A stretch of DNA of 64,000 nucleotides from Candidatus Melainabacteria bacterium (GTDB lineage: Bacteria; Cyanobacteriota; Vampirovibrionia; 2-02-FULL-35-15), in the NCBI GenBank assembly GCA_016193285.1, contig JACPSL010000011.1, forward strand, positions 22,645-86,644, in the 5' to 3' direction. Below, one piece after another: positions 35,780-46,001 of this stretch. Position numbers and translations under genes: made by a program. Under the pieces are notes generated by a model that worked only from the letters and a program-made list of their open reading frames with translations, did not search any database and had not been told where the DNA came from. Within the stretch, counting starts at the first letter, position 1. Every line of letters starts with the position of its first letter.

Positions 35780-36961
35780 ATGCCACAAGTAACATTTGAA
35801 GAACTAAAAAATAAGTATCAAAATAAACCTTTCTTAGAAACTGAAGTAAATTGTAAGTTGCTTTTAAAAACAAAGGAAGGATATATTGTTGATGTTAATG
35901 AAGAGTGGGAAGGTTTTATACCCAATAGCCATGTTGTTAATGGTGCAGAAATTGAACTTCACCAAAGTGAACCTTTTAAGGTTTTAGTTATCTCTGGACC
36001 GGATAAAAGCGATCAGTTTTTAGTTTCGCAAAAAGCACTAAGAGAAAAAACTGTTTGTGAAAATCTTCAAAAATTAAAAGATGAAAACAAACCAATTAAA
36101 ATTACCATCTCAAAAGTAATAAAAGGTGGAGCTGAAGTATATATTGATGGAGTAAGAGCATTTTTACCAGGCAGATACATAAGACTTCCTGGTATAAGTC
36201 AGGAAAACTGGGTTAACCAAGAAATAGAAGTTTTAATTGAGGAGCTGGATTACAAGGAAAGAAAAATTATTTTAAATCACAGAAAAGCCATTGAGCTAGA
36301 CAGACAAAAGAAAGCAGAAGTAACAATTAAAAAATTAAATGAAGGAGATATTATCGAAGCTCCGATTTTACGAATTGCAGACTTTGGGATTTTTATAGAT
36401 CTTGGAGGACTTGATGGTTTAATCCCTGCTTCAGAAATCAGCTGGGGGAGATTTCGTCATCCAAAAGAAGTAGTAAAAGTTGGACAAGTAGTTCAAGCAA
36501 GGATTTTTAGGATTGATAAAGAAAATAAAAGAGTGGCATTAAGCATTAAACAAATTTTAGGAGATCCTTGGGAACAAGTTGAGAGCACGCTGGGAATTGA
36601 TACCCTGGCCAGCGGGAAAGTTATAAGTGAAGCTTCATTTGGATTATTTATTGAGCTTAAACCTGGTGTTGAAGCTTTATTGCATAATTCTGAGATCCCA
36701 GAAAATGTTCAAAGACCTAAAGTAAACTCATTTATTACTGCAAGACTAATAAAAGTTGATCCTGAACAAAGGAAAATAGGGCTTTCACTAAAAGATGTGG
36801 GTCAAAGCACCACAGAATTAGAGAGTCAGGAAGTAGAACAAAGCCTGCAAGATGCTAGTGTTGAAGAAAAACAAAGTAACATAATAGAAGAAGTAGTAAA
36901 CACTGATGCAAGCAGCAGCATCACAGTAGAAAAGAAAGATGAACAAGAGCCAGGAGTATAG
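35780..36961 (+). CDS. rpsA: 30S ribosomal protein S1-like (multi-S1-domain RNA-binding protein)
   Basis: At least three S1 domains (e.g. GDIIEAPILRIADFGIFIDLGG...VKVGQVVQARIFRIDKENKRVALSIKQ). 393 aa with an acidic C-terminal tail. Confidence 0.65.
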   Translation: MPQVTFEELKNKYQNKPFLETEVNCKLLLKTKEGYIVDVNEEWEGFIPNSHVVNGAEIELHQSEPFKVLVISGPDKSDQFLVSQKALREKTVCENLQKLKDENKPIKITISKVIKGGAEVYIDGVRAFLPGRYIRLPGISQENWVNQEIEVLIEELDYKERKIILNHRKAIELDRQKKAEVTIKKLNEGDIIEAPILRIADFGIFIDLGGLDGLIPASEISWGRFRHPKEVVKVGQVVQARIFRIDKENKRVALSIKQILGDPWEQVESTLGIDTLASGKVISEASFGLFIELKPGVEALLHNSEIPENVQRPKVNSFITARLIKVDPEQRKIGLSLKDVGQSTTELESQEVEQSLQDASVEEKQSNIIEEVVNTDASSSITVEKKDEQEPGV

Positions 36962-38330
36962 TTTGTTGACACAAGAAATACAACCCATTACAAAAGATGC
37001 ACAAAAAAATGTGTTAAAAGTAATTTGCGAGTCACCTACTTTAGCAGTTGAGGAACTTGCTCTTAGCTTAAAAAGCAGAGGGAAAGAAATTCTACAGGAG
37101 GAAATCCTTCAGGTTATTTATAGTATCTCGCCAAATAAAAACTGGCACAGGGCAACACAGGAAGATATTTTAAAAGAGATCCTGGAATATCTTTGGACAT
37201 TAGAATCTCAGATTTTATTTTTATTGCCAACAAAACAAAAAGAGACTACTATTGTTGAGTTTAATCAAATTAGGTTACAAAATAAGCAGTCAAAAGTCTC
37301 AAAAGATTTAATTAGACACTTGCAATCATTACTTATGGTTGAAGGTAAAAATCTTGCTAAGTTTAAAAGATTTGAAAAAGAACAAGCAATTCAAACTGAT
37401 TTAGATATAAACATTCAAGCTCAGTGGCTTATAAGAATGATTCTAGCTGGCCCTTCATTAGAGGGGATAAATACAGCACAAGCATTGCCGGTGTTACTCC
37501 AAAATTCTATAAAAGAGAAATTCCCTATTATCTCAGAAAAGGTTGGGAAGAGTTTGCAAAGACTATGTGAAAGATTTGTTGAAAAATACTTTCCTAAAAA
37601 TGTTAGTGAAGAGAAACTAAAAGAATTAGTAAGCTTATACCAGTCAATTTATAATACTCATAAAAAAGGGACAGATACAAATCTATCTATTCAAAGTGAG
37701 TTCCATGATCAAAACAAATTAGTTCAAAATGTGGTTGAGGAGCTAAAAGAGGTACAAGACATTGTAAACAAATCCCATGAAGGTGGCTTTTTAAGCAAGT
37801 TATTCATGGGTAAGGTAAAGAATCGTGAGGGTGTAATAAAAAAAGTTGACGAGGTAATATCAAATCTTAATCAGGTAATTGATTTGAATAATAAGACAAG
37901 TAAGAACCAAAACGAAAAAGTTTTGTTGATACAAAAACTACAATCAGATTATGAAAACATTATTCTAGTAAAAAACCAGTTGGAAAATGATTTAAATGTA
38001 TTAAATGACAGACTTAAAGAACTTCAAAGTAACTCTTCAAACCTGGAGAAAGATCTGCAAGACAAGACTGAGTCTCTTGAAAGATCACATGAAAAAATTG
38101 TAATGCTTCAACGAAAAACAGATGAAATCCCGGAATTAGAAACAAAAGCAAATCATCTAAGAGAAGAGTTAAGTACAGCAAAAGATATTTCCCTAAGGCT
38201 TTATAAGAGAGTAAATAAGCTAAAGACAGAACTGCTTAAACAAAATAATGATAAACCTAAGAATTACAAAATCAATGGAATAAATGGTCAGACAATTATT
38301 AAGATACAGCCCAATGAGGTGATCACTTAG
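36939..38330 (+). CDS. hypothetical coiled-coil protein
   Basis: 463 aa. The C-terminal 200 aa are strongly heptad-like (LENDLNVLNDRLKELQSNSSNLEKDLQDKTESLERSHEKIVMLQRK). Confidence 0.5.
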   Translation: MNKSQEYSLLTQEIQPITKDAQKNVLKVICESPTLAVEELALSLKSRGKEILQEEILQVIYSISPNKNWHRATQEDILKEILEYLWTLESQILFLLPTKQKETTIVEFNQIRLQNKQSKVSKDLIRHLQSLLMVEGKNLAKFKRFEKEQAIQTDLDINIQAQWLIRMILAGPSLEGINTAQALPVLLQNSIKEKFPIISEKVGKSLQRLCERFVEKYFPKNVSEEKLKELVSLYQSIYNTHKKGTDTNLSIQSEFHDQNKLVQNVVEELKEVQDIVNKSHEGGFLSKLFMGKVKNREGVIKKVDEVISNLNQVIDLNNKTSKNQNEKVLLIQKLQSDYENIILVKNQLENDLNVLNDRLKELQSNSSNLEKDLQDKTESLERSHEKIVMLQRKTDEIPELETKANHLREELSTAKDISLRLYKRVNKLKTELLKQNNDKPKNYKINGINGQTIIKIQPNEVIT

Positions 38331-38540: not shown

Positions 38541-39311
38541 TTAAATTACCCCCTTTGAATAAGATAGCATAAAAATATCCTCAATTGCTTTTATATCTTC
38601 TGGTCTATCTACTGCTGGATAAGATTTCGGTACTACCTCAAGCTTAATCTTAATGCCATTTTCGAGAGCACGGAGTTGTTCCAGTTGCTCTAGCTCTTCG
38701 AGTTTGGATGGAGGTAAGTTACTAAACTTAAGTAATGTTTCTCTTGTGTAAGCATAGATGCCAATGTGGCGGAAATAGGAATTGGTTTCGAGGTTTCGAG
38801 GTTTCGAGGTTTCGAGGTTTTTATAGGGAATTGGTGATCTTGAAAAATAAAGTGCAAAATTATTTTTGTCCATGACTACTTTAACAATACTTGGATTAGT
38901 TAAGTCATCTAGATTTGTAATCGGGGTTACAAGGGTGGACATTTCGAATCCTGAGGTTAGAACTTCTATAACTTTATCTATATATTCACTTGGCATTAGT
39001 GGTTCATCGCCTTGTAAATTAACCACATATTTTATTTCTGGATATTTTTCTGCAACTTCACTAATTCTATCTGTGCCGCATTTGTGATCTTTAGAGGTTA
39101 GACAAACGTCTATCTTAAGTGCTGAGTGCTTGTCAACAAAATCAACAATTCTTTTGTCATCTGTTGCAACAATTATTTTATTTGCAAGTTTTGAACCACA
39201 TGCAGCATTTATTACCCATTCAATCATTGGTTTCCCTGCAATTTTTACAAGTGGCTTTCCAGGGAAACGAGTACTTCCAAAACGTGCTGGAATAATAATG
39301 GCTGTTGTCAT
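38541..39311 (-). CDS. kdsB: 3-deoxy-manno-octulosonate cytidylyltransferase (CMP-KDO synthetase)
   Basis: MTTAIIIPARFGSTRFPGKPLVKIAGKPMIEWV N-terminus. Carries an octamer-repeat insertion that keeps the frame (NLETSKPRNLETN). Confidence 0.8.
   Translation of the reverse strand: MTTAIIIPARFGSTRFPGKPLVKIAGKPMIEWVINAACGSKLANKIIVATDDKRIVDFVDKHSALKIDVCLTSKDHKCGTDRISEVAEKYPEIKYVVNLQGDEPLMPSEYIDKVIEVLTSGFEMSTLVTPITNLDDLTNPSIVKVVMDKNNFALYFSRSPIPYKNLETSKPRNLETNSYFRHIGIYAYTRETLLKFSNLPPSKLEELEQLEQLRALENGIKIKLEVVPKSYPAVDRPEDIKAIEDIFMLSYSKGVI
38784..38823. repeat. octanucleotide tandem repeat (ggtttcga x4 plus a degenerate fifth unit) inside kdsB
   Basis: Direct reading of ggtttcgaggtttcgaggtttcgaggtttcgaggttttta. 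Confidence 0.85.
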
Positions 39312-39369
39312 GTAGAAGATTATAGCTTAAACTTACTCATACACATGACATTTCTTTTATAATGTTTGT

Positions 39370-39825
39370 ATGTCCAGTAAAAAGAAAAAAAAGATTCTTA
39401 TCCTCCATGGTCCTAACCTAAATATGCTTGGTAAAAGGGAAAAAAGTATTTATGGCAAAGTTAGTTTAGAAAAAATAAATAATGAGTTAAAAGATCTTGC
39501 TAAAGAATTAAAAGTTTCTCTTGAAATAAAACAATCAAATATAGAAGGAGAACTTGTAAACTTTATTCAAAGTGCATCTAAGAATGGCACAAGTGGAACC
39601 CTTATAAACCCAGCAGCTTACACACATACAAGCGTTGCAATTCGAGATGCAATTTTAGCTACAAAACTGCCAACAGTTGAAGTGCATCTTTCAAATATTT
39701 ATTCAAGAGAAGAGTTCAGGCAAAAATCACTTACTGCTCCTGCTTGTGTTGGGCAGATTACTGGCTTTGGGAAAGATAGTTATTTGCTTGGCTTAAAGGC
39801 ATTAGTAGGAAAGATTAATGTCTGA
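39370..39825 (+). CDS. aroQ: 3-dehydroquinate dehydratase, type II
   Basis: [22 protein letters not shown] and [12 protein letters not shown] motifs. 151 aa. Confidence 0.85.
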
Positions 39826-40012
39826 TCCAGAAGATTCGTGGCATAAGAAAGCTACTACTACTGTACGTTATGATCTTTGTAGTAAGTGTGAGTTCTTTGC
39901 ACCACAAAAACCATATGAACCTGGAGTAAGATGTATTTTTAATTTAAGGCCAGATGTTGTTTTTGAAGATGATAGAGCTGTTGCAAAGTGTGAAGTGTTT
40001 AAGGGGAAATAG
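39818..40012 (+). CDS. small four-Cys (zinc-ribbon-like) protein
   Basis: 64 aa with Cys at C-x2-C (CSKC), RCIF and AKCE. Its ATG overlaps the aroQ stop (ATGTCTGA), consistent with translational coupling. Confidence 0.4.
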
Positions 40013-40046
40013 TAACATAGTTTTTTAAATTTGGGTATAATTCTAA

Positions 40047-40086
40047 TAAGTATTTGAATTGACAAAAATGGCAATTCAAATACTTA
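40047..40086. promoter_or_regulatory. perfect 15-bp inverted repeat (taagtatttgaattg ... caattcaaatactta) overlapping the abiEii-like start, downstream of a TATAAT box at ~40035
   Basis: Direct reading. The two half-sites are separated by a 10-nt spacer that contains the ATG at 40068. Confidence 0.6.
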
Positions 40087-40862
40087 TTAGATCTATGAAG
40101 AGAAATATTTTTTTTAGAGAAGTTTTTCATTTTTGTTTTTTAGAACATTTGCTTTTAATTTCTGATCCAAAAATTTACATTCTTAAAGGTGGGGTAAATC
40201 TAAGATTTTTCTTTAATAACCCTCGTTATTCAGAAGATATGGATATTGATGTCTTAGCTAGCAGTGTTTCTACTTTAAAAAAAAATGGTTATAAAATATT
40301 AAATGAAAATAGCTTTAGAAGAAGATTGCAAACATTTGGAATAGAAGGTTTAATTATTAATGATCCAGCTAAAGCTAAACACACAGAAACCACTCAAAGA
40401 TTTAAGCTAAAAATCATAACAAGTTCAGGAGAATCACTGCCAACGAAGATTGAATTTTCAAGAAGAAAAAAAACACATGATTTGTACACATATAAGTTTG
40501 ACAGGATAAATACTGAAATCTCAAACAAGTACAATCGCCTTTCTTTTTTATGTCAGCACTACACTGGCAAAACTGCAATAATACAAAAAATCGAAGCATT
40601 ATATGGAAGGTCACAAACCCAAAGCAGAGATGTTTTTGATGTCTTTATTCTAACTCTTGGTGGTCATGCTAAAGAGCTAGATGTAAATAAATTAGATCCT
40701 AATTTAGTTCTTAAAGCAAAAGAAGCAGTCCTATCACTTAATTACAAAGAGTTTAAAGAACAAGTTTTAGAATTTTTAGATGCAGCAGAATATGCAAAAT
40801 ATTCTTCTTATGAAAATTGGACTGAAATGCAAAATAAAGTAGCAGGATTACTTACAATATGA
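40059..40862 (+). CDS. nucleotidyltransferase, AbiEii/AbiGii toxin family (DUF1814-like)
   Basis: LKGGVNLRFFFNNPRYSEDMDIDV matches the AbiEii signature (KGGTAL...R.SEDIDF). The ORF track starts at a TTG (40059); an in-frame ATG at 40068 is the more likely start. Confidence 0.65.
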   Translation: MTKMAIQILIRSMKRNIFFREVFHFCFLEHLLLISDPKIYILKGGVNLRFFFNNPRYSEDMDIDVLASSVSTLKKNGYKILNENSFRRRLQTFGIEGLIINDPAKAKHTETTQRFKLKIITSSGESLPTKIEFSRRKKTHDLYTYKFDRINTEISNKYNRLSFLCQHYTGKTAIIQKIEALYGRSQTQSRDVFDVFILTLGGHAKELDVNKLDPNLVLKAKEAVLSLNYKEFKEQVLEFLDAAEYAKYSSYENWTEMQNKVAGLLTI

Positions 40863-41455
40863 ATCTTAAATTTTTAAATCAAGAGATCTTTTTTACTACT
40901 AGTAATTATGCTTGCTGTAATGATTTAGAAATATCAGCTGCATCAAAACAACTCCATAGACTTTATGCTAAACACGTAATAGAAAAAGTTACGCGTGGCG
41001 TCTGGGCTAATATTAATCATCCTTATTACAACCCGCTAGGAGCAGTACCTTACTTACTTGGCAGGGAACAAGGGTATGTTTCATTTTTAACCGCACTACA
41101 TTACCATGGTGTTATTTCCCAAATACCAGCAAAATTCCAGGTAGCAACTACTGGACATACAAGAAAATTAATAAGTCCTATAGGCCATTTTGAGTTTTTT
41201 CATTTAACACCACTCATGATGAATAAAGGCATTGAATGGAGTCATAGTAAATCTAATTATTTAATTGCTAATGCTGAGAAAGCACTTCTTGACGCTTTAT
41301 ACATTTCTACTTGTAAAGGGAAAAGGTTTTCTTTACTCCCTGAAATAGATTTAGAAGAAGTAGATGTGAAGTATTTTAAAAAATTACTTAAAGAAACAAT
41401 TAAGAGCAAAATTACTAAAAGTGCTATTGAAGAGTATTTTAAAAATCAAACTTAA
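40859..41455 (+). CDS. AbiEi-like antitoxin/transcriptional regulator (COG5340-like)
   Basis: VTRGVWANINHPYYNPLGAVPYLLGREQGYVSFLTALHYHGVISQIPAKFQVATTGHTRKL matches the AbiEi consensus (rG.Y......p.......l...p.gyiS..SAL.yHGL..q.P....vat....r). Overlaps the upstream gene by 4 nt. Confidence 0.6.
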   Translation: MNLKFLNQEIFFTTSNYACCNDLEISAASKQLHRLYAKHVIEKVTRGVWANINHPYYNPLGAVPYLLGREQGYVSFLTALHYHGVISQIPAKFQVATTGHTRKLISPIGHFEFFHLTPLMMNKGIEWSHSKSNYLIANAEKALLDALYISTCKGKRFSLLPEIDLEEVDVKYFKKLLKETIKSKITKSAIEEYFKNQT

Positions 41456-41532
41456 CTTCAGATTAAAGCTAATACAAGTCCTGATATTTATTCTTACCAC
41501 TTATCACTTACCACTGCTAAAATAGCCATGTT

Positions 41533-43539
41533 ATGGAAACACGAGGCCTCTGGTGGAATATTCATGACTTCCCACACTACAAAGAAATCTTTTATAGCTT
41601 ATTTTTAATTTCAGTTTTATTTTTTATTTATGGTTTTTATTTAAAAATTAAAAACTGGTCACGTGGAAGACCAGTAAGTAACTTTAACAATCTGCCTAAA
41701 CGGTTTATAAAAATGTTTTGTAGTAGTTTTCTCTATAAAGGCTGGAGAGGCCCGGTAATTTTTGCGCATGTACTTGTTTTTTATGGTTTTTTTGTTCTCT
41801 GGATAGGCACTGATATTTTAACCGTTCAAGAGCACTTGCCAATTTATTTTTTTGAAGGGACATTTTATAAAGTTTATTCACTTCTTATGGATTTATCTGG
41901 TGTTTTCATGCTTCTTGGGATTTTATTTTTTGCATATATTAGATACATTCAAAAACCCGAAAGATTAGATAATTATCAAAATGATTGGTTACAGCTTGTT
42001 TACCTTGCTTTATTTATAATTGTTGGTTTTTTAATTGAAGGACTTAGACAATCAGCTACAAATCAAATTGAAACATATACATCTGTTGGAATGATGATTG
42101 GAACTTTGTTTCAAGGATTATCTTATGAGGCACAAAAAAACCTGCATCTTATTTTATGGTGGCTGCATTCTTTACAAACATTTTCTTTTATAGCACTTAT
42201 TCCATATACAAAGTTTGCTCATATTTTTGTTAGCCCAGTAAATTTATTTTTTAGTGATTTAAAATCAAGTGGTGCTTTAAGTACTCCTTTTAATTTAGTT
42301 GAACTTATGGCAATGGACAACCCTCCTGAAGATTTTGCACAAGGAGTATCAAAGCTTGAGGATTTTAGCTGGAAGGATCTAATGGACTTGGATGCTTGTA
42401 CTGCTTGTGGTAAGTGTCATGAAATTTGTCCTGCAACAAACTCAGAAAAACCACTTTCACCAAAGTGGGTAATTCTAGATCTAAGGCAAGCTATGTATAA
42501 AAGACCTTTGTTTTCGCATAAGTTTAAAGGGAATTCTAGCTCTACTCTTCCAGGTTTAGTTACTCCAGAAACCCTTTGGTCATGCACTACTTGTAATGCA
42601 TGTGTTGAAGTATGTCCAGTTGGAATAAATCAGCTTACAAAAATTGTTGAGATGAGAAGAACATTAATTACTGAAAACAAAGCCCCTAATAATTTACTTA
42701 ATACATTAAAAAATATCCGTTCAAGATCTAATCCTTGGGGACAGCCAGTAGAAGATCGTGAAAAGTGGACAGAAGGATTAGATGTGCCAAAAGTAGAAAA
42801 TACACCTAGCTTTGAATATTTGTATTGGGTGGGTTGCGCAGGTGCATATGATAGTAGAAATCAAAATATTGCAAAAACAATGGTTAAACTTTTTAAAAAA
42901 GCAAATGTAAAGTTTGCAATCTTAGGAAAGAAAGAAAAATGTACTGGAGACACCGCTAGACGTGCTGGCGATGAAGGGCTTTTTCAAGAGCTTGCAATTG
43001 GAAATATTGAAACATTTAAAAGTATAAATGTCAAAAAAATAGTTACTCATTGTCCACATTGTTTTAATACTTTTAAAAATGAATATCCAAAGTTTGGTTT
43101 AAAGGATGTAGAAGTTTTACATCATACTGAGTTTTTATGGAGCTTGATTCAAGAAGGCAAACTTACAATGACAAAAGAAATTAACCAAGAACTTACTTAT
43201 CATGACTCTTGTTATTTAGGTCGTCACAATAGCCAATATGACGCGCCAAGAAATATTTTAAATAAGATTCCAGGTATAAAATATATTGAAATGAAAAACT
43301 CACGTGAGCAAGGAACATGTTGTGGTGGTGGAGGTGCAGGGCTTTGGTATGAGGCCCTTGGGAAACAAATCAATGTTATGCGGTTAAATGAAATAAAAAA
43401 CTCTGGTGCAAAAACCTGTGCAAGTGCATGCCCATTTTGTACTATTATGTTAGAGACTGCAGGAACGCTAGATAAAAGTGGAGAGCCGCTTGTGGTACAG
43501 GATATAAGTGAGCTGATAGCTCAGAGCGCGGAGCTCTGA
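41533..43539 (+). CDS. membrane-bound Fe-S oxidoreductase, heterodisulfide-reductase-like (NarI/HdrE-like membrane domain fused to a HdrD/GlpC-like 2x[4Fe-4S] + CCG domain)
   Basis: N-terminal ~230 aa with 5-6 TM helices. Two ferredoxin-type clusters (CTACGKCHEICP, CTTCNACVEVCP). Two Cys-rich CCG-type motifs (CAGAYD...C, CCGGGGAG...CPFC). Confidence 0.6.
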   Translation: METRGLWWNIHDFPHYKEIFYSLFLISVLFFIYGFYLKIKNWSRGRPVSNFNNLPKRFIKMFCSSFLYKGWRGPVIFAHVLVFYGFFVLWIGTDILTVQEHLPIYFFEGTFYKVYSLLMDLSGVFMLLGILFFAYIRYIQKPERLDNYQNDWLQLVYLALFIIVGFLIEGLRQSATNQIETYTSVGMMIGTLFQGLSYEAQKNLHLILWWLHSLQTFSFIALIPYTKFAHIFVSPVNLFFSDLKSSGALSTPFNLVELMAMDNPPEDFAQGVSKLEDFSWKDLMDLDACTACGKCHEICPATNSEKPLSPKWVILDLRQAMYKRPLFSHKFKGNSSSTLPGLVTPETLWSCTTCNACVEVCPVGINQLTKIVEMRRTLITENKAPNNLLNTLKNIRSRSNPWGQPVEDREKWTEGLDVPKVENTPSFEYLYWVGCAGAYDSRNQNIAKTMVKLFKKANVKFAILGKKEKCTGDTARRAGDEGLFQELAIGNIETFKSINVKKIVTHCPHCFNTFKNEYPKFGLKDVEVLHHTEFLWSLIQEGKLTMTKEINQELTYHDSCYLGRHNSQYDAPRNILNKIPGIKYIEMKNSREQGTCCGGGGAGLWYEALGKQINVMRLNEIKNSGAKTCASACPFCTIMLETAGTLDKSGEPLVVQDISELIAQSAEL

Positions 43540-43575: not shown

Positions 43576-44406
43576 ATGAATAACTTAAAGTTATTACTAA
43601 TAGTTTCAATATTTTTATTAATTAGTTTGTCAGGTTGTTTAAGAAAAGGAAGCTTAATGCAATGTGCATGTAATCAAGCAATTTCAGCTAGTGATATTGC
43701 TGATAAAGAAACAAAGTGGAAGAAGTTAAATGAAAAAGTAGTTGAGCTTTATAATGAAAAACAATTTTTTAGGGCATCAGGCGAGGCAAAAAAAGCATTT
43801 ACCTTCTCAGAGAAAGAATTTGGTCCAAGTGATCCAAGAACAGCAACAGCATTAAATAACTTGGCTGAGCTATATAGACTCCAAGGGAAGTTTAATGATG
43901 CAGAAAAAAATTACAAAAAAGTATTAATGGTTAGGGAAGAAACTTTAGGAAAAGAGCACCCAGATTATGCTATTTCTTTAAACAACCTTGCAACCTTGTA
44001 TTTTACTCAGAAAAAATATAAAGAGGCAGAACCGTTATATAAAGAATCTCTAGGTATAATTCAGAAAAAAGTTAAAGCTGGTGATGAGAATTTATATACT
44101 CCAGTTAGTAACTTAGCTGAATTATATAAAGCTCAAGGGAAGTACAAAGAAGCAGAACCACTTTTTAAAGAGCTAGTTACAATTACAGAAAAAGCAAAAG
44201 GGAAACAAGATCCTCTTTATGCAAAATCCTTAAATGATTTAGCCGCAGTTTATTACTTAGGAGGAAAGTATAAAGAGTCAGAATTACTTTTTAAACAAGC
44301 TTTAGTACTTTTAGAAAAGTTGCTTGGTAAAACAAATCCTGACTTAGCTGTAGTTAGAAATAATTTATCTGAAGTTACAAAAAAGTTAGCTGTAGCAAAG
44401 AACTAA
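43576..44406 (+). CDS. tetratricopeptide-repeat lipoprotein
   Basis: Lipobox LLISLSGC. Five or six TPR_12-like repeats (ALNNLAELYRLQGKFNDAEKNYKK...). Confidence 0.7.
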   Translation: MNNLKLLLIVSIFLLISLSGCLRKGSLMQCACNQAISASDIADKETKWKKLNEKVVELYNEKQFFRASGEAKKAFTFSEKEFGPSDPRTATALNNLAELYRLQGKFNDAEKNYKKVLMVREETLGKEHPDYAISLNNLATLYFTQKKYKEAEPLYKESLGIIQKKVKAGDENLYTPVSNLAELYKAQGKYKEAEPLFKELVTITEKAKGKQDPLYAKSLNDLAAVYYLGGKYKESELLFKQALVLLEKLLGKTNPDLAVVRNNLSEVTKKLAVAKN

Positions 44407-46001
44407 ACATCACCTCTATATATTTTTAATTTTGGTGGTGATGGTGGTGGTTCTTCAGGTGGTTCATATAGATCTAAATTAGCTGCTTCAAATAATTTTC
44501 CTCTAAGTTCTCTTCTTTTCGGGAAAAACCATTGACTAATACCATATCCTGTTTCACTTAAAACTGATTTTAGTATTTTTTTTAATGGACTGCTGTCATC
44601 TATTAATTCTATAGCTGGCATAAATATATTTATTGCATTTCCAATTAAACCTATTTTTGATAAATTAGAAAAGTTATTTACTAATGGCTCTAATTCTTTT
44701 TTAGTTGGATCATCTTCATCTAGTTTGCTTATATAGTCTTTAAGTTGTACACTCCTAGCGTATTCTTTTGTACTAAATCTAAGAGAGTATAAAACATTTT
44801 GAAATGATCCTCTTATACGGGCAAGTGAATTTATTTTTCTTTTTAATGAATCACTTACATATTCATCTTTGGTAAATGCTGTCACTCCTCTTAATGGCAT
44901 AAAAATTGCTAAAAAACTAAATCCTGCAATTCCAATAAATGGTGCAATTGTTTCATTTAATATTCTTGCTGAGTTTTCTAATACCTTTATATCTCTTGAA
45001 AATAATCCAAGAAATAATTTGCCTAACTTACTTGATGCTTTTTCTCCTTCTTTTAATCTAAGTAATCCTTTTACTCTTCCTTTTAAATGATTTATTGACA
45101 AAACTTCTGATTTTATTATTTCTTCTATAGCTTCTTTACTCTCTTCTTTCCCTAATACTGCAGGAAGAATATTTTTAGCATACTTAAATAAATAATTACC
45201 AAGCCTTTGGTCACTAAGAGCAAGATACCTTAAACTCCAAAGGGAGTTAGTAGGTAAAGTAAGGAGAGAAGTTGCTGTTTCTATTTTATCTGAGTCAAGG
45301 AAGGAGAGAAAAGGTAAAACATAAGGTTTAATATTAGTTTCAAAAGTACAAGAAAGTTCAGCCCAAGTCCCAGCAACATTTTCATAATTATCTCTTTGAA
45401 AAACAGAAACACCTTTATCATCGTCAGCTCTTCCATAAATGTGACCATATAACTTTTTTCCTCTCATGCCTTGGGTGTAACCATGAAGTGCTTTTAAACC
45501 AATCATGAGTGAAGGAGGAAAATAATCCAACTGTTCAAAGGCAGAAATCACTCCACTAAGGATAGAAGCTTCAATAGCATAAGTAGCAGATTCATTTCCA
45601 TATATTTTATTTGCGTGTGCCCAGTCAATGGTTTTTTCTACTTTTTCACATGCCTTGTCTATAACATAAAGAGCTTCTTTTTTATTAAGCTCAACTCCTA
45701 CATCAAGTCCTTTTTGAATTAATTGCTTTGCATGAAATATTCGAGCATCTTTATCTCGATGAACACAAATATCTTTAGCAGCTTCCTCTAAAAATCCATC
45801 ATTATTTCTGTAATGTTCAGGAAAAACATCAGAAAGAGAAATTAATTTGTCTTCGTTATATATTGCTCTTGATGAAAAGTTTTTAAGTTCTTCTTTTAAA
45901 AACTTTTCTAATTTCTTTTTATCCCTTTTAATAACTGGACTTATAAAGACAGGCGGATAATAATCGTGTTTTTGATTTACTGGTGGTGTTGATGCAATCA
46001 T
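44403..46001 (-). CDS. hypothetical protein with Pro-rich C-terminus
   Basis: 532-aa ORF, no recognised catalytic motif. The C-terminus is LYEPPEEPPPSPPKLKIYRGDV. Confidence 0.5.
   Translation of the reverse strand: MIASTPPVNQKHDYYPPVFISPVIKRDKKKLEKFLKEELKNFSSRAIYNEDKLISLSDVFPEHYRNNDGFLEEAAKDICVHRDKDARIFHAKQLIQKGLDVGVELNKKEALYVIDKACEKVEKTIDWAHANKIYGNESATYAIEASILSGVISAFEQLDYFPPSLMIGLKALHGYTQGMRGKKLYGHIYGRADDDKGVSVFQRDNYENVAGTWAELSCTFETNIKPYVLPFLSFLDSDKIETATSLLTLPTNSLWSLRYLALSDQRLGNYLFKYAKNILPAVLGKEESKEAIEEIIKSEVLSINHLKGRVKGLLRLKEGEKASSKLGKLFLGLFSRDIKVLENSARILNETIAPFIGIAGFSFLAIFMPLRGVTAFTKDEYVSDSLKRKINSLARIRGSFQNVLYSLRFSTKEYARSVQLKDYISKLDEDDPTKKELEPLVNNFSNLSKIGLIGNAINIFMPAIELIDDSSPLKKILKSVLSETGYGISQWFFPKRRELRGKLFEAANLDLYEPPEEPPPSPPKLKIYRGDV

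Follow-up and report, generated by a model that had tools for sequence, protein, structure and literature searches.

A probable autoregulated AbiE-family toxin-antitoxin operon with the toxin gene first in a Candidatus Melainabacteria genome

In a 64,000-nucleotide (nt) window from a Candidatus Melainabacteria metagenome-assembled genome (MAG), two overlapping genes on the forward strand follow a large inverted repeat (all coordinates given here are positions in this window). The first gene, abiEii (40095-40862, +), encodes a 255-amino-acid (aa) nucleotidyltransferase of the DUF1814/COG2253 type, counted from the conserved start, which is the predicted toxin. The second, an abiEi-like gene (40859-41455, +), encodes a protein of 198 aa, the predicted antitoxin and autorepressor, in which a winged helix-turn-helix at the N terminus is followed by a C-terminal domain. 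The abiEi-like start lies on the abiEii stop, giving an overlap of 4 nt (ATGA, 40859-40862), and the inverted repeat is a palindromic operator-like element at 40037-40096, to which no strand is assigned. The exact window proteins are named "AbiEii/AbiGii toxin family protein" and "hypothetical protein HYY52_02625" at NCBI, respectively. We consider it very probable that the promoter/operator, abiEii, and abiEi constitute a self-contained, horizontally mobile, autoregulated toxin-antitoxin (TA) operon of the AbiE family (abortive-infection type). The parts of this module can be seen at the locus itself, and the activities of both proteins are ascribed to them from characterized relatives.

The open reading frame (ORF) containing abiEii (ORF1, 40059-40862) matched the Pfam family PF08843 AbiEii with 54.5 bits (E = 2e-14; the gathering cutoff is 22.5 bits), and 16 PADLOC AbiEii models matched it as well. 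Since more than 100 homologs of ORF1 are 253 to 256 aa long, and given the family-wide alignment of upstream regions (66 loci), the true abiEii start is taken to be the ATG at 40095 and not position 40059; the "TTG start" listed for that position is simply the opening TTG of a TTGACA hexamer. An alignment of 45 toxin homologs revealed four groups of invariant residues (K31, G32, and G33; R44, Y45, S46, E47, D48, and D50; K165, A168, L169, and R172; R178, D179, and D182), and all four of the catalytic motifs that were defined and mutated in the AbiEii of Streptococcus agalactiae (PMC3985639) are present, namely, I/II (hG[G/S]...R..DhD), III (KLxAaxxR), and IV (+DxxD). An AlphaFold2 (AF2) model of the toxin (predicted local distance difference test [pLDDT], 92.5) matched the folds of the DUF1814 enzymes JHP933, MenT3/TglT, and MenT4 (Foldseek E = 1.5e-7 to 7.7e-6), with a query-normalized template modeling score (TM-score) to MenT4 of 0.66. 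When measured at a synonymous divergence (dS) of 0.6 to 1.6, the ratio of nonsynonymous to synonymous divergence (dN/dS) was 0.12 to 0.14 for abiEii and 0.13 to 0.15 for the abiEi-like gene, values that indicate that both module genes are under purifying selection.

The second ORF (ORF2, 40859-41455) matched 27 PADLOC AbiEi models, the best of them over nearly the full length of the protein (E = 5.4e-18, residues 25 to 187), and PF13338 was found in some ORF2 homologs at 50 to 57% identity. When the family profile was aligned with an AbiEi from an antitoxin-first Runella plasmid operon using hhalign, a probability of 97.4% was obtained (E = 9e-12). Since single-sequence and profile searches of PDB sequences returned no AbiEi and only weakly JHP933, a comparison of folds was required. 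In the AF2 model of the 198-aa partner (pLDDT, 82), the N-terminal domain is a winged helix and the C-terminal domain is of mixed alpha/beta type. The sole significant match to this model in a Foldseek search of the PDB was 6Y8Q, the AbiEi of S. agalactiae (E = 4.9e-5, 211 columns), and the N-terminal domain of the model also resembles winged-helix proteins. A loop of the partner, S87-Q88-I89-P90, is nearly or fully invariant among the homologs and lies in a low-pLDDT, probably flexible stretch of the model. A first-pass annotation of this DNA had read the first ORF as an AbiEii nucleotidyltransferase and the second as an AbiEi/COG5340 regulator, and it had proposed hidden Markov model (HMM) searches of both. 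The former identification is borne out by PF08843, the PADLOC models, the motifs, and the fold, and the latter is supported by the PADLOC HMMs, the hhalign match to an antitoxin-first homolog, and the fold; among the HMMs, ORF1 passed PF08843 and ORF2 passed the PADLOC AbiEi models, while no Pfam AbiEi family matched ORF2. With models of the PADLOC type or with the A1 profile from this analysis, such "hypothetical" partners could be named across the clade.

The inverted repeat has perfect 20-nt arms at 40042-40061 and 40072-40091 with 10 nt between them, and the arms lengthen to 28 nt at 89% complementarity (40037-40064 and 40069-40096); the number of such inverted repeats expected by chance in the window is ~0.04. 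Folded as a hairpin, the element has an energy of -29.5 kcal/mol (z = -6.7). The whole repeat lies upstream of the conserved ATG at 40095, with the perfect arms stopping 3 nt before the start, and the palindrome cores were identical at 14 to 15 of 15 positions over comparisons in which dS was 0.6 to 1.6. A perfect 15-bp inverted repeat (40047-40061 and 40072-40086) straddling the start codon just downstream of a TATAAT box had been described in the first-pass annotation. The repeat is real, albeit larger than stated, and it straddles the start only if the TTG at 40059 or the ATG at 40068 is used. The TATAAT box occupies 40036-40041, adjoins the palindrome, and is the putative -10 box of a sigma-70-like promoter (GTAACA-18 nt-TATAAT, 40012-40041, +) that, with 10/12 matches, is the best promoter-like site within 39300-41700.

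A comparison of 81 distinct upstream regions revealed a large palindrome at -53 to -3 in most of them; 67 regions carried a TTGACA-like hexamer at the palindrome center, and 66 of these were aligned. The consensus of the aligned loci is ttaATTATGnATnTnnA-TTGACA-tatacgg-CAATnnAnATnCATAATtaa-n-ATG. Symmetric cells were complementary in 81% of cases (31 to 36% in slid controls), 183 cells were changed on both sides (28 to 63 in the controls), and the covariation score was 0.311 (0.05 to 0.07 in the controls); for each of these measures, none of 500 column shuffles reached the observed value. Five palindrome positions switch base pair, with one pair being T:A, C:G, or A:T and two others being A:T or G:C, for example. 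Among the 66 loci, the center hexamer reads TTGACA in 43 and TTGACG or TTGACT in another 19, and the hexamer 18 nt downstream of it is CATAAT in 54. The first ATG follows this -10 hexamer by 5 to 7 nt in 62 of the 66 loci and is in frame in 65. Since the -10 box lies in the right arm and the ATG comes 5 to 7 nt later, most family members should produce a leaderless toxin mRNA from a promoter that lies wholly within the palindrome, and this arrangement argues that the palindrome of the family works as a DNA element rather than as RNA. Being conserved in the family, symmetrically covarying, and positioned over the promoter, the inverted repeat is supported by these alignments as the palindrome expected of an AbiEi operator. 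The suggestion in the first-pass annotation that it is operator-like was thus well founded, with binding by AbiEi being a prediction.

Several loci differ in the details of this element. Two toxin-first copies of the module (L012 and L019) reside in one genome, on two contigs of the MAG Gammaproteobacteria bacterium BMS9Abin36, and their half-sites differ at the covarying positions (…GTATTTGAATTG… versus …GTATCTATATTG…). Such a difference would be expected if coresident copies were insulated from each other's repressor. Sub-clades of loci (L009 to L011 and L021; L016 and L018; L022, L025, and L032) carry palindromes of other designs at the corresponding position, examples being TGAATTCAT-N6-ATGAATTCA and TTTTGTT(G/T)ACG-tatt-CGTAAACAAAA, the latter with a center of 4 nt only; the central hexamer differs from TTGACA in some of these sub-clades. 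At L054, a toxin-first locus from another Melainabacteria MAG (55% identity), no recognizable palindrome or TTGACA/CATAAT arrangement was found over the 160 nt that precede its inferred start, and this locus may use another start or may have lost the operator.

In the window copy, the palindrome center retains the family -35 box, TTGACA (40059-40064, +). At the place of the family -10 box (CATAAT) is CTTATT (40083-40088, +), a degenerate remnant with a spacing of 18 nt from TTGACA and of 6 nt to the ATG. Changes in the window arms are paired and symmetric (ATTATG to AATAAG on the left, CATAAT to CTTATT on the right), so that the palindrome stays perfect while the internal -10 box is lost. The window copy is probably driven by the GTAACA-18-TATAAT site. 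The Melainabacteria relatives L001 and L004 have TAGACA-17-TATAAT at the equivalent place, and their central TTGACA has decayed to TTTCCA/TTTCCG. As judged from these promoter positions, the window copy likely has a leader of ~45 nt that holds much of the repeat, and the repeat may have a secondary effect at the RNA level in the Melainabacteria lineage. No Shine-Dalgarno sequence precedes the ATG at 40095.

The gene order was scored in the best 80 (44 to 76% identity) of the 471 stretches encoding toxin relatives that were found in a scan of one genome per species. All 79 scorable loci are toxin-first, and the remaining locus ends at a contig edge. These 80 loci come from at least five phyla and include Melainabacteria, Gammaproteobacteria (many of them Woeseiaceae), Bdellovibrionota, Planctomycetota, Limisphaerales, and others. 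Relatives with 68 to 76% identity in two other Melainabacteria genomes have the same toxin-then-antitoxin pair with a 4-nt overlap in entirely different neighborhoods, and the loci L001 to L006 are toxin-first in unrelated contexts. Plasmid copies at 24 to 35% identity (Miltoncostaea, Bosea, and Acidiphilium) are likewise toxin-first with an overlapping AbiEi-like partner, whereas the antitoxin gene comes first for the more remotely related AbiEi proteins encoded on plasmids of Xanthomonas and Runella. In the antitoxin-first Runella operon, a 17-nt, N10 palindrome ends at the start of the first gene. These loci indicate that the AbiE/DUF1814-COG5340 family occurs in two gene orders, with the toxin-first order marking an old, large clade, and that the palindromic operator remains with the promoter whichever gene leads. 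The nucleotidyltransferase gene had already been placed first, with an overlapping partner second, in the first-pass annotation, and this order, like the 4-nt overlap, proved to be fixed across a large clade that includes several phyla. The contrast that it drew with antitoxin-first AbiE systems agrees with Dy et al. (2014), who describe the regulator gene as preceding the nucleotidyltransferase gene in AbiE, but the novelty that it implied is weakened by the clade-wide order and by the description of the RlegTA system (see below). Similarity between module copies extends from the -35 box to the abiEi stop codon, so the mobile unit would consist of the promoter/operator plus the two genes. No flanking repeats or target-site duplications of a mobile element were found around the module.

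The genes flanking the module are aroQ, which matched PF01220 with E = 3e-57, and one for a CCG/4Fe-4S/NarI-like Fe-S oxidoreductase; its wider neighborhood is of a housekeeping nature (RecJ, PilC-like, S1, KdsB, and PPDK). Both the Pfam matches and the annotation of the neighborhood confirm the housekeeping context between aroQ and an Fe-S oxidoreductase gene that had been noted at first pass. A 64-aa Cys-rich ORF (…VRCIF…AKCEVF…) at 39818-40012 (+) starts within the aroQ stop region (ATGTCTGA overlap) and matched neither Pfam nor NCBIfam. Since this ORF is missing upstream of the module in L001 and L004, we assign it to the host operon and not to the module. Two long ORFs elsewhere in the window, at 36939-38330 (+; 463 aa, Lys/Glu-rich) and 44403-46001 (-; 532 aa), had no Pfam match at E <= 1e-5.

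By analogy with the S. agalactiae AbiEi and Rv2827c, two AbiEi molecules would use their winged-helix domains to bind the two palindrome arms, and the operon would thereby be repressed. AbiEii would transfer nucleotides to a component of translation, most likely the acceptor ends of tRNAs as MenT toxins do, and growth would be arrested. Binding of AbiEi would then neutralize the toxin, which would be induced to phosphorylate itself on Ser46. For S. agalactiae, a 2026 preprint (10.64898/2026.01.19.700257) describes AbiEi binding to AbiEii, which induces auto-phosphorylation of T65, two residues before D67-x-D69, and reports that a flexible loop of AbiEi, D85-E86-I87, is essential. Ser46 is invariant in the 45 homologs; it precedes the D48-x-D50 metal site by two positions and corresponds in place to T65 of AbiEii and S78 of MenT3. 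The hallmarks of type VII systems are therefore present in the form of the acceptor site S46-E47-D48-M49-D50 and a conserved flexible-loop candidate, S87-Q88-I89-P90, with phosphorylation itself being a prediction. Given that an antitoxin that neutralizes catalytically need not come first or be in excess, a toxin-first, translationally coupled layout would be workable. Phage infection or loss of the module would release the toxin. In the window lineage, symmetric arm mutations would have destroyed the internal -10 box; transcription across the operator probably depends instead on the TATAAT that borders the left arm on its outer side.

A number of observations weigh against this model. The window module lies in housekeeping surroundings and not in a defense island, and phage and viral collections contain almost no relatives of it: no phage genome matched, and one viral contig matched weakly (36% identity). 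ORF2 scored 47.7 bits on the NCBIfam model NF047376 TAA_AbiEi, missing the equivalog cutoff of 150; it had no Pfam match at E <= 0.1, AbiEi_1 to AbiEi_4 included, and no AbiEi was among the PDB sequences found by profile. The full-length Foldseek TM-score of the partner model to 6Y8Q was just 0.33 to 0.35, a low value that we tentatively attribute to a different orientation of the domains, as has been reported between AbiEi and Rv2827c. The assignment of the partner to AbiEi consequently rests on the PADLOC models and the predicted fold. When mutual information was calculated between the five covarying operator positions and all AbiEi/AbiEii columns, the top scores went to high-entropy toxin columns, with ancestry swamping the signal, and no specific tie between palindrome and partner emerged. 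Furthermore, judging from the Men toxins, phosphorylation does not neutralize all relatives, since MenT3 is neutralized by phosphorylation of S78 and MenT4 is exempt. Finally, as the family -10 box is missing from the window copy, this copy may be transcribed from another start and regulated differently than the rest of the family.

The housekeeping neighborhood would suit a housekeeping or decaying nucleotidyltransferase/regulator pair that is not a TA system, with the palindrome being unrelated to it, for instance, as a terminator of the aroQ operon. We regard this scenario as extremely unlikely, and the distribution and conservation of the module appear to have largely refuted it already: the same three-part unit recurs in unrelated contexts in many phyla, and the toxin motifs are all intact at a dN/dS of ~0.13. 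A terminator was considered for the hairpin and rejected, given that no T-tract follows the stem, that the terminator scan was empty there, and that the element is kept whichever strand the upstream gene is on, as at L001 and L004, where that gene is on the opposite strand and the palindrome is retained. The hairpin could also, in the window lineage, act mainly as RNA within a ~45-nt 5' untranslated region, where it would hold back translation of the toxin or determine how stable the mRNA is, either instead of repressor binding or in addition to it. The strong stem that ends 3 nt before the AUG, the unaided ATG with no Shine-Dalgarno sequence before it, and the conservation of the upstream promoter in the Melainabacteria clade, in which the internal -10 box and, at L001 and L004, the internal -35 box have decayed, are consistent with such a role. 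However, with the -10 box inside the right arm 5 to 7 nt before the ATG in 62 of 66 loci, the palindrome of the family lies outside the transcript and is nonetheless conserved and symmetric. In addition, a transcription start ~7 nt after TATAAT would fall within the left arm and sacrifice part of the stem, and an Rfam search of the hairpin found no relevant family. We therefore judge a mainly RNA-based function to be improbable.

The mode of neutralization is a separate matter. An AbiE-like module could be neutralized otherwise than by induced auto-phosphorylation, whether by stable sequestration (as in MenAT1) or by an unknown route (as in MenAT4), or its antitoxin could be mainly a transcriptional repressor, and the AbiE phosphorylation mechanism stands on one preprint. 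Nevertheless, Ser46 occurs without exception, in 45 diverse homologs, exactly at the acceptor position, and the conserved, low-confidence S87-Q88-I89-P90 loop resembles the essential D85-E86-I87 loop of the S. agalactiae AbiEi. We thus consider neutralization by another route possible, if doubtful, and retain induced auto-phosphorylation as the preferred model.

A further proposal, which we hold tentatively and stop short of favoring, is that the toxin-first clade represents a distinct, undescribed architectural variant. In such a variant, a single palindromic operator would enclose the entire promoter (-35 box central, -10 box in the right arm), the toxin mRNA would be leaderless, and translation of the antitoxin would depend on termination-reinitiation at ATGA; in Melainabacteria, the paired symmetric mutations would have moved the -10 box from the right arm to the left edge, so that an operon that had been leaderless would have gained a leader able to form a hairpin, with the operator left intact. 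If this is true, expression of the neutralizer would be strictly downstream of that of the toxin, an arrangement workable only with catalytic neutralization. The toxin-first, apparently leaderless, coupled layout is a natural test of catalytic (auto-phosphorylation) versus stoichiometric neutralization by AbiEi. The module is genuine but, within its large family, rather ordinary, and standard defense-system models (PADLOC) already detect both of its proteins. The toxin-first order is probably not new, given the description of RlegTA in the 2026 preprint; the placement of the promoter inside the palindrome throughout the family, the leaderless mRNA predicted from it, and the relocation of the -10 box are minor and possibly undescribed details. 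No new class of system is opened by these findings, and a defense role in the Melainabacteria genome is a prediction. The module is instead a clean example of the two fixed gene orders in the AbiE/DUF1814-COG5340 family, with the operator staying with the promoter.

Sberro et al. are said to have reported the RlegTA system of Rhizobium leguminosarum in 2013. According to the same preprint (10.64898/2026.01.19.700257), which treats RlegTA as a functional TA system, RlegA is a 205-aa COG5340 antitoxin encoded downstream of a DUF1814 toxin, and RlegTA reduced the diameter of T7 plaques in Escherichia coli. As described there, RlegTA resembles the window module in its toxin-first order and in the size class of its antitoxin (205 aa versus 198 aa here). 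Plasmid searches found no close relatives of the module in R. leguminosarum; the sole R. leguminosarum locus found (on pRlX5) is toxin-first, with an overlapping downstream ORF whose likeness to AbiEi is weak (hhalign probability, 11%).

The SanaTA system of Shewanella sp. ANA-3 also pairs a DUF1814 toxin with a small COG5340-related antitoxin, both under the PADLOC AbiEi/AbiEii models. It differs in being antitoxin-first, in having an antitoxin without the C-terminal domain, and in matching PADLOC sub-models other than those matched by the window proteins. On the ANA-3 plasmid NC_008573 (L094, 21935-23283), a gene encoding a DUF6088 protein of 136 aa comes first and overlaps the AbiEii-family gene that follows it, and a type I restriction-modification operon lies immediately downstream of the pair. 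This locus was presumed to be SanaA/SanaT from the 136-aa antitoxin size and the DUF1814 neighbor and not from a published locus tag. Since the presumed SanaTA locus is antitoxin-first, "TA" in system names was ruled out as a guide to gene order.

The Mycobacterium tuberculosis systems MenAT3 (Rv1044-Rv1045, TakA/TglT) and MenAT4 (Rv2827c-Rv2826c) share the toxin fold and have COG5340 antitoxin partners. The acceptor S78 of MenT3 is at the position of Ser46 here, and Rv2827c autoregulates via pairs of 23-bp inverted repeats. In its operator, which overlaps the promoter, the inverted-repeat pairs are 13 bp apart and one monomer binds each arm. Unlike the window module, both systems are antitoxin-first, with toxins of ~290 aa and larger antitoxins, and Rv2827c uses four repeats with negative cooperativity.

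With the AbiE systems of S. agalactiae and Lactococcus lactis (COG5340-COG2253), the window module has in common a DUF1814 toxin with motifs I to IV, a two-domain antitoxin of ~200 aa, a bicistronic arrangement with a 4-nt overlap, and a Ser/Thr acceptor two residues before DxD. Long inverted repeats over the promoter are a further shared feature: the operator of the S. agalactiae AbiEi overlaps the promoter and consists of two 23-bp inverted repeats 3 bp apart, with one monomer per arm, and the arms here are 20 to 28 bp long and 4 to 10 bp apart. In contrast to AbiE, where the antitoxin gene is first, the toxin gene leads here. In pairwise comparison, no sequence similarity between the partner and the solved AbiEi was detectable, and the partner misses the Pfam AbiEi and NCBIfam cutoffs; the GG-to-DxD spacing is 14 residues here versus 16 (G50 to D67) in S. 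agalactiae. Lastly, most members of the toxin-first family are apparently leaderless, whereas the S. agalactiae operon has a 26-nt leader with a ribosome-binding site.

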